The notes beneath the pieces are model-generated. The model was not told the DNA's origin. It saw only the letters and a program-made list of their open reading frames with translations, and searched no databases. The translations under genes were made by a program, and so were the position numbers. Shown here one piece after another: positions 14,081-49,072 of a stretch of DNA of 64,000 nt; within the stretch, counting starts at the first letter, position 1; each line of letters starts with the position of its first letter. The stretch comes from Escherichia coli (GTDB lineage: Bacteria; Pseudomonadota; Gammaproteobacteria; Enterobacterales; Enterobacteriaceae): NCBI RefSeq assembly GCF_003334385.1, contig NZ_QOWN01000018.1; one strand, written 5' to 3'.

Positions 14081-14123
14081 GGTTTATTCCTCATTGAGGG
14101 CGCTTTTATCATGTGTTGCTTAT

Positions 14124-14150
14124 TTATCGGCAAGGGACGGGTAATCTTTA
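14124..14150 (-). promoter_or_regulatory. Sigma-28 (FliA) class 3 promoter for flgMN
   Basis: Minus strand reads TAAAGATT-N11-GCCGATAA, close to consensus TAAAGTTT-N11-GCCGATAA; in the 75-bp gap between the flgA stop and the flgM start. Confidence 0.8.
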
Positions 14151-14155
14151 ACAGC

Positions 14156-14815
14156 TTACAGGTTTATAAGAATATTCCCATCTGCATCAACAACGCCGCT
14201 GACTACCTGTCCCGATACCATGCGCACCCGCGCATTCTGTGCGACGGCTGCATTGTTCAGCGCCTGACCTTCTGCGTTGGCGCTAAACCCATCACCGCTG
14301 GCGATCACATTGACGCGTTGTCCCGCTTTTACCCGCCATGCCTGGCGAAACTGGGTTAACTGGATAGGTTGATCGGGTGATAGATCGCGCAGGCTAATGG
14401 CATCAACAAGTTGATTGATATCCAGCACCGTACGCGGTGGCAGGGTATCCAGCCGTCCGCGTTTCAGTTTGACATTGCCAGCTTCCAGCTTTCCTCCCCG
14501 CGCAATGGGCATCGCGGCAACCACATAATTTCCTGTGGCCTGTACATTAACCTGTAAATATCGTTTGTCGTTACCGCAGCGTGCCAACACATTCACATTG
14601 CCCCACAGGCGGGAATTATTGCTCATCGAAAGCAATGGCTGCTCGCATGGCGGTAGTAGATTGGGCGCTGTACGAATAGAAACACGAACCTCATCACTTA
14701 CCCCCGCGAGTTGGGCGCTAAAAAAGTTGTGCAATTGCGATGTGAGATTGCTCGCCGTACTTAACGGACTGAACAGTATCGCGATGATCGCCACGCTACG
14801 TTTTATTATCAGCAT
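14156..14815 (-). CDS. flgA: Flagellar P-ring assembly chaperone
   Basis: ORF track 219 aa with signal peptide. Confidence 0.9.
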   Translation of the reverse strand: MLIIKRSVAIIAILFSPLSTASNLTSQLHNFFSAQLAGVSDEVRVSIRTAPNLLPPCEQPLLSMSNNSRLWGNVNVLARCGNDKRYLQVNVQATGNYVVAAMPIARGGKLEAGNVKLKRGRLDTLPPRTVLDINQLVDAISLRDLSPDQPIQLTQFRQAWRVKAGQRVNVIASGDGFSANAEGQALNNAAVAQNARVRMVSGQVVSGVVDADGNILINL

Positions 14816-14969
14816 TTTCGCCCCCAGCCATTTCTACAACGTGAATTGTACCTGTCCGCAATGACCATCAACGGCATAAATAGCGACCCATTTTGCGTTT
14901 ATTCCGCCGATAACGCGCGCGTAAAGGCATTTAAGCTGATGGCAGAATTTTGATACCTGCGGAGGAGAT
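14816..14969. promoter_or_regulatory. Divergent flgA / flgB class 2 promoter region with candidate FlhD4C2 box elements
   Basis: 154-bp divergent intergenic region; AAATAGCG (14878-14885) and GATAACG (14909-14915) resemble FlhDC box half-sites as recalled. Confidence 0.5.
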
Positions 14970-15386
14970 ATGCTCGATAAGCTCGACGCCGCCTTACGTT
15001 TTCAACAAGAGGCGCTCAATCTGCGCGCCCAGCGTCAGGAAGTGCTGGCAGCAAACATCGCCAATGCCGATACCCCTGGTTATCAGGCGCGCGATATCGA
15101 TTTTGCCAGTGAACTTAAAAAAGTCATGCAACGTGGACGGGATGCAACCAGTGTGGTTGCACTGACGATGACCTCAACGCAACACATTCCGGCGCAGGCG
15201 CTGACGCCTCCTACCGCAGAACTGCAATACCGTATTCCGGACCAGCCTTCGCTTGACGGTAATACCGTCGATATGGATCGCGAACGCACCCAGTTTGCCG
15301 ATAACAGCCTGCAATACCAGATGAGCCTTAGCGCGTTGAGCGGGCAAATCAAAGGCATGATGAACGTTTTACAGAGCGGAAATTAA
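14970..15386 (+). CDS. flgB: Flagellar basal-body rod protein FlgB
   Basis: ORF track 138 aa. Confidence 0.95.
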
Positions 15387-15805: not shown

Positions 15806-16501
15806 ATGTCCATTGCGGTAACCACCACCGATCCGACAAATACCGGCGTCAGTACCACCAGCAGTAGTTCGCTCACGGGCAGCAACGCCGCAGATTTACA
15901 AAGCAGTTTTCTGACTTTGCTGGTGGCGCAGCTGAAAAACCAGGACCCGACCAATCCAATGGAAAACAACGAGCTGACGTCGCAATTGGCACAAATCAGC
16001 ACGGTCAGCGGGATTGAAAAACTCAATACCACGCTCGGATCTATTTCCGGACAGATTGATAACAGCCAGTCGTTACAGGCCAGTAACCTGATCGGTCACG
16101 GCGTGATGATCCCCGGCACCACTGTTCTTGCGGGAACCGGCAGTGAAGAAGGGGCTGTGACCACGACCACGCCGTTTGGTGTTGAGCTGCAACAGGCGGC
16201 AGACAAAGTTACGGCCACCATCACCGATAAAAATGGCGCGGTTGTGCGCACCATTGATATTGGTGAACTGACCGCCGGAGTTCACAGTTTCACCTGGGAC
16301 GGTACGTTGACTGATGGCAGCACTGCGCCGAACGGTTCTTACAATGTAGCGATTAGCGCCAGTAACGGTGGTACACAACTGGTTGCCCAGCCGCTGCAGT
16401 TTGCTCTGGTGCAGGGTGTGATCCGCGGCAACAGCGGTAATACGCTGGATCTCGGCACTTACGGCACCACCACCCTCGACGAAGTACGGCAGATAATTTA
16501 A
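15806..16501 (+). CDS. flgD: Flagellar hook capping/assembly protein FlgD
   Basis: ORF track 231 aa. Confidence 0.95.
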   Translation: MSIAVTTTDPTNTGVSTTSSSSLTGSNAADLQSSFLTLLVAQLKNQDPTNPMENNELTSQLAQISTVSGIEKLNTTLGSISGQIDNSQSLQASNLIGHGVMIPGTTVLAGTGSEEGAVTTTTPFGVELQQAADKVTATITDKNGAVVRTIDIGELTAGVHSFTWDGTLTDGSTAPNGSYNVAISASNGGTQLVAQPLQFALVQGVIRGNSGNTLDLGTYGTTTLDEVRQII

Positions 16502-22269: not shown

Positions 22270-22296
22270 TCAAGTCCGGCGGGTCGCTGCCGATAA
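22270..22296 (+). promoter_or_regulatory. Sigma-28 (FliA) class 3 promoter for flgKL
   Basis: TCAAGTCC-N11-GCCGATAA; perfect -10 element, 5 of 8 matches in the -35; 34 bp upstream of the flgK ATG. Confidence 0.7.
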
Positions 22297-22329
22297 TACT
22301 CTGTAATTGAAGGCTTATAAGGAACCTCC

Positions 22330-23973
22330 ATGTCCAGCTTGATTAATAACGCCATGAGCGGACTGAACGCGGCCCAGGCGGCGTTAAATACGGCAAGTAA
22401 TAATATCTCCAGCTATAACGTTGCCGGATATACCCGCCAAACCACTATTATGGCGCAGGCCAATAGCACGTTGGGCGCTGGCGGCTGGGTTGGCAATGGT
22501 GTCTACGTTTCTGGTGTGCAGCGTGAGTATGATGCGTTTATTACCAACCAGTTACGTGCGGCGCAGACGCAAAGTAGCGGTCTGACTGCCCGCTATGAGC
22601 AGATGTCGAAAATCGACAATATGCTCTCCACCAGTACCTCTTCGCTGGCAACACAGATGCAGGATTTCTTCACCAGCCTGCAAACGCTGGTGAGTAACGC
22701 GGAAGACCCGGCAGCGCGCCAGGCGCTGATTGGGAAATCAGAAGGATTGGTGAATCAGTTTAAAACCACCGATCAATATCTGCGCGACCAGGACAAACAG
22801 GTCAATATCGCGATAGGTGCCAGCGTTGATCAGATCAACAACTACGCTAAACAAATTGCCAGCCTGAACGATCAAATCTCGCGCCTGACAGGCGTGGGGG
22901 CAGGGGCGTCACCTAACAATCTGCTGGATCAACGCGATCAACTGGTGAGCGAATTAAACCAGATTGTTGGTGTAGAAGTCAGCGTTCAGGATGGCGGCAC
23001 TTATAACATCACGATGGCCAATGGTTACTCACTGGTTCAGGGAAGTACGGCGCGGCAACTGGCGGCAGTTCCTTCCAGCGCTGACCCTTCTCGTACGACT
23101 GTCGCTTATGTTGATGGGACGGCAGGCAATATTGAGATCCCGGAGAAATTACTGAATACCGGGTCGCTGGGCGGCATTCTGACATTCCGTTCTCAGGATC
23201 TGGACCAGACGCGTAATACGCTTGGACAACTGGCGCTGGCATTTGCCGAGGCTTTCAACACCCAACACAAAGCCGGATTTGATGCTAACGGCGATGCCGG
23301 TGAAGATTTCTTTGCTATCGGTAAGCCCGCGGTTCTGCAAAACACGAAAAACAAAGGTGACGTTGCGATCGGTGCCACGGTAACTGATGCCTCCGCGGTA
23401 CTGGCGACAGATTACAAAATCTCGTTCGATAATAATCAGTGGCAGGTCACCCGCCTTGCCAGCAATACCACTTTTACGGTGACGCCGGATGCCAACGGTA
23501 AAGTGGCATTTGATGGTCTGGAGTTGACGTTTACAGGAACGCCTGCCGTTAACGACAGCTTCACGCTGAAACCAGTAAGTGACGCCATCGTCAACATGGA
23601 TGTATTAATCACCGACGAAGCGAAAATAGCGATGGCGAGCGAAGAAGATGCGGGTGATAGCGATAACCGCAACGGTCAGGCCCTGCTGGATCTGCAAAGC
23701 AACAGTAAAACGGTGGGCGGTGCGAAATCCTTTAACGACGCTTATGCCTCGTTAGTGAGTGATATCGGTAATAAAACCGCGACGTTGAAAACCAGTAGCG
23801 CCACGCAAGGTAATGTGGTGACGCAGCTTTCCAATCAGCAGCAGTCGATTTCCGGTGTCAATCTCGATGAGGAGTACGGAAATCTGCAACGTTTTCAGCA
23901 GTATTACCTGGCGAATGCGCAGGTTCTGCAGACGGCAAACGCGATTTTTGATGCGCTGATTAACATTCGCTAA
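22330..23973 (+). CDS. flgK: Flagellar hook-filament junction protein 1 (HAP1)
   Basis: ORF track 547 aa. Confidence 0.95.
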   Translation: MSSLINNAMSGLNAAQAALNTASNNISSYNVAGYTRQTTIMAQANSTLGAGGWVGNGVYVSGVQREYDAFITNQLRAAQTQSSGLTARYEQMSKIDNMLSTSTSSLATQMQDFFTSLQTLVSNAEDPAARQALIGKSEGLVNQFKTTDQYLRDQDKQVNIAIGASVDQINNYAKQIASLNDQISRLTGVGAGASPNNLLDQRDQLVSELNQIVGVEVSVQDGGTYNITMANGYSLVQGSTARQLAAVPSSADPSRTTVAYVDGTAGNIEIPEKLLNTGSLGGILTFRSQDLDQTRNTLGQLALAFAEAFNTQHKAGFDANGDAGEDFFAIGKPAVLQNTKNKGDVAIGATVTDASAVLATDYKISFDNNQWQVTRLASNTTFTVTPDANGKVAFDGLELTFTGTPAVNDSFTLKPVSDAIVNMDVLITDEAKIAMASEEDAGDSDNRNGQALLDLQSNSKTVGGAKSFNDAYASLVSDIGNKTATLKTSSATQGNVVTQLSNQQQSISGVNLDEEYGNLQRFQQYYLANAQVLQTANAIFDALINIR

Positions 23974-37251: not shown

Positions 37252-38061
37252 ATGTTCTTAATTAACGGTCATAAGCAGGAATCGCTGGCAGTAAGCGATC
37301 GGGCAACGCAGTTTGGTGATGGTTGTTTTACCACCGCCAGAGTTATCGACGGTAAAGTCAGTTTGTTATCGGCGCATATCCAGCGACTACAGGATGCTTG
37401 TCAGCGGTTGATGATTTCCTGTGACTTCTGGCCTCAGCTTGAACAAGAGATGAAAACGCTGGCAGCAGAACAGCAAAATGGTGTGCTGAAAGTCGTGATC
37501 AGTCGCGGTAGTGGCGGGCGAGGGTACAGCACATTGAACAGCGGACCGGCAACGCGGATTCTCTCCGTTACGGCTTATCCTGCACATTACGACCGTTTGC
37601 GTAACGAGGGGATTACGTTGGCGCTAAGCCCGGTGCGGCTGGGGCGCAATCCTCATCTTGCAGGTATTAAACATCTCAATCGTCTTGAGCAAGTATTGAT
37701 TCGCTCTCATCTTGAGCAGACAAACGCTGATGAGGCGCTGGTCCTTGACAGCGAAGGGTGGGTTACGGAATGCTGTGCGGCTAATTTGTTCTGGCGGAAG
37801 GGCAACGTAGTTTATACGCCGCGACTGGATCAGGCAGGTGTTAACGGCATTATGCGACAATTCTGTATCCGTTTGCTGGCACAATCCTCTTATCAGCTTG
37901 TCGAAGTGCAAGCCTCTCTGGAAGAGTCGTTGCAGGCAGATGAGATGGTTATTTGTAATGCGTTAATGCCAGTGATGCCCGTATGTGCCTGTGGCGATGT
38001 CTCCTTTTCGTCAGCAACGTTATATGAATATTTAGCCCCACTTTGTGAGCGCCCGAATTAG
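37252..38061 (+). CDS. pabC: Aminodeoxychorismate lyase
   Basis: ORF track 269 aa. Confidence 0.95.

Positions 38062-47231: not shown

Positions 47232-49072
<1,841 letters not shown>

Follow-up and report, generated by a model that had tools for sequence, protein, structure and literature searches.

Whether sigma-28 acts on the hook-basal-body (class 2) operons has been debated for decades, and such an input was suggested for class 2 operons generally. It was reportedly built into a network model of 2004.

ChIP-seq of FliA gave no support for sigma-28 input at flgA, flgB, fliF, flhB and fliE: none of its 52 sites lies at flgA/flgB, and FliA overexpression in an flhD deletion did not restore expression of flgA and flgB (Fitzgerald et al. 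2014, Fig S6). Dual class 2/3 promoters, as listed there after Liu and Matsumura 1996, are those of fliAZY, fliLMNOPQR and fliDST. Sigma-28 input was revived for flgA/flgB in 2026, with MarA as a co-factor (Klimova et al., Nucleic Acids Res 2026, PMC12781870).

Klimova et al. described in the flgA/flgB region two sigma-70 promoters activated by FlhD4C2, flgAP1 and flgBP1, together with two divergent sigma-28 promoters, flgAP2 and flgBP2, that have one common -35 element and are wholly overlapped by the FlhD4C2 site. FlhD4C2 was found to bind the region by EMSA and to activate it in vitro, and it represses flgAP2 and flgBP2. Transcripts of the sigma-28 holoenzyme are seen in vitro only with intact -10 elements. 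The flgBP2 start lies 25 nt upstream of the sigma-70 start (transcripts of 141 vs 116 nt), while transcripts from flgAP2 and flgAP1 measure 154 and 131 nt, respectively. The -35 of flgBP2 was termed 'particularly poor'; only -9 and -8 open without MarA, and opening extends from -11 to +5 with it. MarA, whose binding was followed by EMSA and in footprints made with DNase I and KMnO4, occupies the interval from the -35 to the -10 of flgBP2, activates the promoter in vitro as well as an flgB::lacZ fusion, and distorts base pair -11, where a template-strand mismatch can replace it. Deletion of flgBP2 leads to loss of the salicylate/MarA induction of the flgB::lacZ fusion. The in vivo data of that work come from plasmid fusions and ectopic sigma-28 (PMC12781870).

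The sigma-28 elements analysed here are the same object as in Klimova et al. 2026 and are already known. The present analysis adds their coordinates in the window (the whole 64,000-nucleotide stretch of E. coli DNA that was analysed), matrix scores, their geometry relative to dual promoters and their phylogenetic distribution. Of this, only the restriction of the sigma-28 elements to particular taxa is new; their conservation is not discussed in PMC12781870. The octamer GCCGATAA at 14906-14913 very probably has a dual use, as outer arm of the FlhD4C2 box and as sigma-28 -10 element of flgBP2.

The FlhD4C2 box between flgA and flgB

The intergenic gap between flgA and flgB (14816-14969, 154 bp) is 100% identical to K-12, so that experiments made in K-12 can be transferred base for base. 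A 1-kb query around the locus has 100% identity to many E. coli genomes, which are annotated flgA / flgB / flgC. The flanking coding sequences are:

14156-14815, minus strand: flgA, first gene of flgAMN (open reading frame list and RefSeq annotation of identical E. coli genomes)
14970-15386, plus strand, ATG at 14970: flgB, first gene of flgBCDEFGHIJ (open reading frame list and annotation)

Of 5426 complete E. coli genomes, 5305 (97.8%) have the 60-bp core at 14866-14925 without any change, and the whole 154-bp region has at least 99% identity in 4166 complete E. coli genomes. The most divergent E. coli strain examined retains GCCGATAA. In five E. coli assemblies the flgA-flgB locus is found on a replicon labelled plasmid; these are probably mislabelled or split chromosomes.

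The core contains one FlhD4C2 box:

14870-14911, no strand: single FlhD4C2 box, common to both divergent class 2 promoters (PMC9962212 Table 1; scan; ChIP-seq; conservation)
14870-14885: left arm of the box, AACGGCATAAATAGCG
14886-14895: spacer of the box, ACCCATTTTG, 10 bp
14896-14911: right arm of the box, CGTTTATTCCGCCGAT

These coordinates correspond to the flgA/flgB box given with a gSELEX peak in PMC9962212 (AACGGCATAAATAGCGACCC ATTTTGCGTTTATTCCGCCGAT). Compared to the consensus of that study, AAYGSSNNAAATAGCG-N10-12-CGCTATTTNNSSCRTT, the box matches 24 of 28 specified positions (14/14 in the left arm, 10/14 in the right arm, spacer of 10) and is the unique top match in the 64 kb. The next-best distinct site reaches 21/28 and the best score in shuffled sequences is 19-20 of 28 (20 shuffles). 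The full box is significant on sequence. The same scan gives weaker K-12 boxes at yecR (21/28), fliE/fliF and flhB (20 each), fliA and fliL (19 each), the flgA/flgB box being the best consensus match among the E. coli class 2 regions scanned. The centre of the FlhD/FlhC ChIP-seq peak (1130152, FAT 13/16) corresponds to position 14879.5, 11 bp off the box centre, with the window-to-NC_000913.2 offset derived from the FliA motifs of flgM and flgK.

The sequence-only reading of the region had taken two plus-strand motifs, GCCGATAA (14906-14913) and AAATAGCG (14878-14885), for the paired half-sites of an FlhD4C2 box. Both motifs are present at these positions and both lie in the box, as shown for GCCGATAA by the published box and by our scan and supported by deep conservation, but their partners are different. 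In the palindrome the left core AAATAGCG mirrors CGTTTATT (14896-14903), while the promoter-proximal outer arm GCCGAT (14906-14911), which is formed by the first six bases of GCCGATAA, mirrors AACGGC (14870-14875). AAATAGCG is not enriched in the window (4 copies vs 2.7 expected).

The positions of the two sigma-70 promoters can be estimated from the published transcript lengths:

14932-14937, plus strand: putative -10 of flgBP1, TAAGCT, with +1 at about 14946 (25-nt offset; hexamer conservation)
14845-14850, minus strand: putative -10 of flgAP1, TACAAT, with +1 at about 14836-14838 (23-nt offset from flgAP2)

With these estimated starts the box would extend from about -76 to -35 relative to flgBP1 and from about -75 to -34 relative to flgAP1. 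This layout is symmetric, and the ends of the box, at -35 and -34 respectively, adjoin the -35 region. GCCGATAA overlaps the flgBP1 -35 position (GATAAC, 14909-14914). Centred about 55 bp from each estimated start, the box activates the divergent flgAP1 and flgBP1, which is likely to be its main and ancestral function. A scan of 14780-15000 for consensus sigma-70 promoters and terminators found none; the lack of a consensus sigma-70 promoter is expected because these promoters are activator-dependent.

Sigma-28 elements in the outer arms of the box

The sigma-28 elements of the region and the MarA site are positioned as follows:

14906-14913, plus strand: GCCGATAA, -10 of flgBP2, A-11 being 14910 (sequence; Klimova et al. 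oligonucleotides; published transcription and KMnO4 data)
14887-14894, no strand: weak sigma-28 -35 common to flgBP2 (CCCATTTT) and flgAP2 (AAAATGGG, minus strand) (PWM register; Klimova et al.)
14914-14920, plus strand: flgBP2 discriminator CGCGCGC, 7/7 G+C (sequence)
14921, plus strand: predicted flgBP2 transcription start, within 2 nt (mismatch oligonucleotide; 25-nt offset from flgBP1)
14867-14874, minus strand: GCCGTTGA, -10 of flgAP2, which overlaps the FlhD4C2 box in its left outer arm (mutagenic primer; PWM score of 7.3 bits)
About 14859, minus strand: predicted flgAP2 +1, from the position equivalent to -11
14886-14905, minus strand: approximate MarA site (marbox) in reverse orientation, placed from the text of Klimova et al. 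alone

GCCGATAA is an exact sigma-28 -10 element (8/8). The region was scored with a FliA matrix of 28 columns, for which 50 of the 52 ChIP-seq motifs tabulated by Fitzgerald et al. 2014 (Table 2) were used. The 28-mer at 14887-14914 (CCCATTTTGCGTTTATTCCGCCGATAAC) scores 10.3 bits, to which the -10 part contributes +14.8, the maximal value and equal to that of the best ChIP-bound FliA sites, and the -35 part -3.3. The sequence-only reading had seen no credible -35, and this stands: the candidate CCCATTTT, 11 nt upstream of the -10, has 4/8 matches to TAAAGTTT, in agreement with the judgement of Klimova et al. In leave-one-out scoring flgBP2 would rank about 45th among the 50 bound sites, within the bound range. 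Scores of at least 10.3 bits occur at 28 positions of the window, vs 5.8 in shuffles, and the chance of such a hit in a 154-bp region calculated from these counts is about 5%. The resemblance at 14887-14914 is therefore not significant from sequence alone, which cannot decide the sigma-28 question.

A poor -35 does not disqualify a sigma-28 promoter. About 5 of the 50 ChIP-bound FliA sites have an equally bad one (ves, lplA, mutY, ydcU and yrfF); that of ves has a -35 sub-score of -2.2 with a FAT of 44, and the fliA promoter itself has a FAT of 91 with a -35 sub-score of only +1.2. As such sites are bound, the poor -35 was not a decisive argument against sigma-28, although the caution was reasonable.

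GCCGATAA is found 10 times in the window vs 2.1 times expected from dinucleotide shuffles, an about five-fold excess that is suspected to result from codon usage (GCC-GAT-AAx or, in the opposite strand, ATC-GGC). Most copies are in genes, and two belong to known class 3 promoters, that of flgM at 14124 (minus strand) and that of flgK at 22289 (plus strand). This abundance speaks for a chance 8-mer devoid of function. The probability of that explanation is nevertheless vanishingly small: the copy at 14906-14913 is in the best FlhDC box of the window, within a region conserved order-wide, and there is published mutational evidence. The box analysis and the mutagenesis together rule out a functionless octamer.

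Five other matrix hits of 12.7-17.0 bits are absent from the 52 published FliA sites, and all of them outscore flgBP2. They are at 37840-37867 (minus), 47979-48006 (plus) and 23761-23788 (minus) and, within genes, at 16204-16231 (plus, flgD) and 15278-15305 (plus, flgB), the last with a perfect TGCCGATAAC. Some or all could be look-alikes that are silent, or sites used only under certain conditions.

The oligonucleotides of Klimova et al. map the published experiments onto the window. Their mutagenic primer TTGCGTTTATTCCGCG GCATA ACGCGCGCGTAA changes GCCGATAA at 14906-14913, and their flgA primer GGTCGCTATTTATGCG GCTT GATGG... changes GCCGTTGA at 14867-14874 on the minus strand. Comparison of their bottom-strand oligonucleotides, wild-type vs mismatch, shows the change at the T that faces the first A of GCCG-A-TAA. 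This makes 14910 the A-11 and places +1 of flgBP2 at about 14921, 8 nt past 14913. The proposal that GCCGATAA is part of an FlhDC box instead of a sigma-28 promoter is contradicted by these experiments, in which mutation of this very -10 led to loss of the sigma-28 transcript. A fliA-dependent start about 7 nt past 14913, which the sequence-only reading had named as evidence that would speak against it, was reported in vitro and in reporter assays.

The discriminator of flgBP2 consists only of G+C (7/7), compared to 3/7 in flgAP2 and 2-6/7 in nine validated sigma-28 promoters, and may have a part in the incomplete opening ascribed by Klimova et al. to the poor -35. Put together with the published data, nearly the whole sigma-28 promoter is inside the box and is occluded by FlhD4C2. 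The poor -35, possibly with the all-G+C discriminator, prevents the sigma-28 holoenzyme from fully opening flgBP2, and MarA bound between -35 and -10 allows full opening by distorting base pair -11 (14910). In the PWM register the 28-mers of flgBP2 and flgAP2 use the same 8-bp -35, and flgAP2 is a mirror image of flgBP2, made of GCCGTTGA in the left outer arm on the minus strand and the same -35.

The position of the MarA site is based on the published distortions, which lie 5 bp beyond each end of the site and include the one at -11 (PMC12781870). Its placement from sequence was rejected: the best regional candidates for the marbox consensus AYnGCACnnWnnRYYAAAYn, at 14871-14890 (plus) and 14889-14908 (minus), have 4-5 mismatches, a background level that thousands of window positions attain. 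A regulatory leader in the longer 5' region of flgBP2 was also rejected, as folding of the RNAs 14921 to 14990 and 14946 to 14990 gave no support for structure (z-scores of 0.62 and 0.31).

The lack of a FliA ChIP-seq site and of rescue by FliA overexpression makes the use of flgBP2 at its native position in vivo doubtful. Klimova et al. ascribed the missing ChIP signal to occlusion by FlhDC and to the MarA requirement (PMC12781870). Native use in vivo is plausible, and would at best be conditional. The same two observations, together with the poor -35 and a matrix score that is not significant alone, favour the idea that GCCGATAA serves only as outer arm of the FlhDC box and that sigma-28 initiation is an artefact of in vitro conditions or overexpression with no cellular role. 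However, point mutations in the -10 abolish a transcript specific to sigma-28 in vitro, deletion of flgBP2 abolishes the response of flgB::lacZ to salicylate/MarA, and failure in the flhD deletion is expected of a promoter that requires MarA, since MarA was uninduced in that experiment. The invariance of the core in E. coli also speaks against it, though FlhDC constraint could explain this as well. A role of GCCGATAA in FlhDC binding only is thus considered very unlikely.

Distribution of the elements in Enterobacterales

A FlgB-based scan with one genome per species yielded 80 loci of Enterobacterales, 79 of which were aligned on an AAATARCG anchor; in most of the 80 this anchor precedes the flgB ATG by 91-98 bp. 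The 79 sequences have a highly conserved block AA[C/G]G..nnAAATAGCG - ACGCATTTTG - CGYTTATT - CC - nnCGATrr followed by the flgBP1 -10. The FlhD4C2 box is conserved at a fixed distance from flgB, and the flgBP1 -10 hexamer (TAAGCT / TATGCT / TATCCT) is at a fixed distance from the box in the 79 species. The flgAP1 -10 keeps the pattern TA.AAT in the alignment.

Conservation in the 79 sequences is strong even in the spacer of the box (ACGCATTTTG, in E. coli ACCCATTTTG), though the consensus has N10-12 at this place. As this is also the case where no sigma-28 -10 is present, a shared sigma-28 -35 or MarA site is not the explanation; the conserved spacer may be contacted by FlhDC or be needed for bending.

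At the position of GCCGATAA the CGAT core alone is conserved, which is explicable by FlhDC binding. The homologous octamers are:

Salmonella and most Citrobacter: GGCGATAA
Enterobacter: GTCGATAA
Yersinia and some Serratia: GACGATAG / CACGATAG
Pantoea: GACGATGG
Hafnia and some Edwardsiella: TCCCATCG / CGCCATCG

Among the 80 loci (one genome per species, with E. fergusonii and E. marmotae as well as S. enterica and S. bongori outside the set), E. coli and E. albertii alone have the exact GCCGATAA at this place. The 28-mer homologous to flgBP2 scores 14.3 bits in E. albertii, 11.6 in a clade with Cedecea colo and 10.3 in E. coli; scores are 4-7 bits in some Enterobacter and relatives, 2.2 in Salmonella and most Citrobacter, and negative in many others. 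In the 80 loci flgBP2 does not show the conservation in related genera expected of a canonical class 3 promoter. The flgAP2 -10 GCCGTTGA is restricted to Escherichia as well, with 7.3 and 10.0 bits there vs at most 2.6, and mostly negative values, elsewhere. The CGCGCGC run of the flgBP2 discriminator is also present in Salmonella and most Citrobacter.

The site of the Cedecea clade, TGCATTTT-N11-GTCGATAAC (11.6 bits), is found about 64-91 bp upstream of flgB in Enterobacter sp. R1, Cedecea sulfonylureivorans and Cedecea colo. It may be an independent sigma-28-competent site inside the FlhDC box.

From these alignments it is concluded that the FlhDC box probably represents the ancestral, order-wide function and that the sigma-28 elements originated within the Escherichia lineage, where the arms of the box are degenerate. 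The pattern adds to the arguments for a role in FlhDC binding only, since the CGAT core is kept across the 79 Enterobacterales and the GCC that makes a perfect sigma-28 -10 is not. The dual use of GCCGATAA is still preferred.

The sigma-28 promoters could be real but unselected by-products, drift at the degenerate SS positions having made GCCG on both arms and caused weak use by sigma-28. The FlhDC outer-arm consensus SSCRTT (here nnCGAT) is only 1-2 substitutions away from the sigma-28 -10 core, both -10 elements sit on degenerate arm positions and, in the species sampled, are restricted to E. coli and E. albertii, and the weak -35 and the discriminator look unoptimised. Many FliA ChIP sites of E. 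coli are moreover intragenic and have no detectable transcript (Fitzgerald et al. 2014). Against a by-product, both arms became GCCG in one lineage to give a matched divergent pair with one common -35, the specific activator MarA acts precisely at -11, and the sequence persists in E. albertii, where the score is higher, as well as in the most divergent of the E. coli strains examined. This origin is regarded as rather unlikely.

A lineage-specific origin can be put forward tentatively. The arm changes AACGCA to AACGGC (left) and GGCGAT or GTCGAT to GCCGAT (right) might have created paired, divergent -10 elements with one common -35 as an Escherichia-specific invention that works as a hand-over switch. 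FlhDC would then drive the sigma-70 promoters and mask the sigma-28 ones until its level falls, after which sigma-28 with MarA would maintain expression of the hook-basal-body genes; independent arrival at this solution is possible in other genera, for example in the Cedecea clade with GTCGATAAC. The physiological role of dual use would be that sigma-28 and MarA top up the hook-basal-body genes once FlhDC has fallen. The contrast between apparently Escherichia-specific sigma-28 elements and an order-wide FlhDC box suggests that MarA/sigma-28 input may not transfer to Salmonella.

Comparison with dual and class 3 promoters

For the long debate on sigma-28 input, the answer at this locus is a conditional one: a sigma-28 promoter exists, is buried in the activator site and needs DNA distortion to open. 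For genome scans it follows that a perfect sigma-28 -10 with a bad -35 is not to be dismissed from sequence, and that overlapping motifs need not exclude each other.

Two canonical class 3 promoters are present in the same window, and their motifs are identical to the entries in Table 2 of Fitzgerald et al. 2014:

14123-14150, minus strand: flgM (flgMN) promoter, inside flgA, 26.2 bits, -35 TAAAGATT, FAT 48
22270-22297, plus strand: flgK (flgKL) promoter, 20.4 bits, -35 TCAAGTCC, FAT 47

They share the -10 GCCGATAA with flgBP2 but have a recognisable -35 and strong ChIP signals, while flgBP2 scores only 10.3 bits.

A search for sigma-28 elements inside the FlhDC boxes of flhB, yecR, fliE/fliF, fliA, fliL and fliD found none. 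The idea that FlhDC boxes are general sigma-28 promoters was rejected, FliA motifs being downstream of the box where they are present. The flgA/flgB box is the sole class 2 box scanned that has sigma-28 -10 elements in both outer arms.

The dual promoters resemble flgB in design, as they also combine an FlhDC box with a sigma-28 promoter that has a perfect or near-perfect GCCGATAA, and the fliA -35 is weak as well. They differ in geometry. The FliA motif of K-12 fliA, fliL and fliD is 7-18 bp downstream of the best FlhDC box, where the fliA and fliL box assignments (19/28) are at shuffle level and the fliA box matches the PMC9962212 listing; the ChIP peak offsets at the dual promoters (24-28 bp) agree in direction with a motif downstream of the box. 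At flgB 25 of the 28 bp of the motif are inside the box. FliA occupies the fliA, fliL and fliD dual promoters in vivo and gives no ChIP signal at flgB. Embedding of the motif in the box would make binding of FlhDC and of the sigma-28 holoenzyme mutually exclusive, a geometry that fits both the repression of flgBP2 by FlhD4C2 and the missing FliA signal at flgB.
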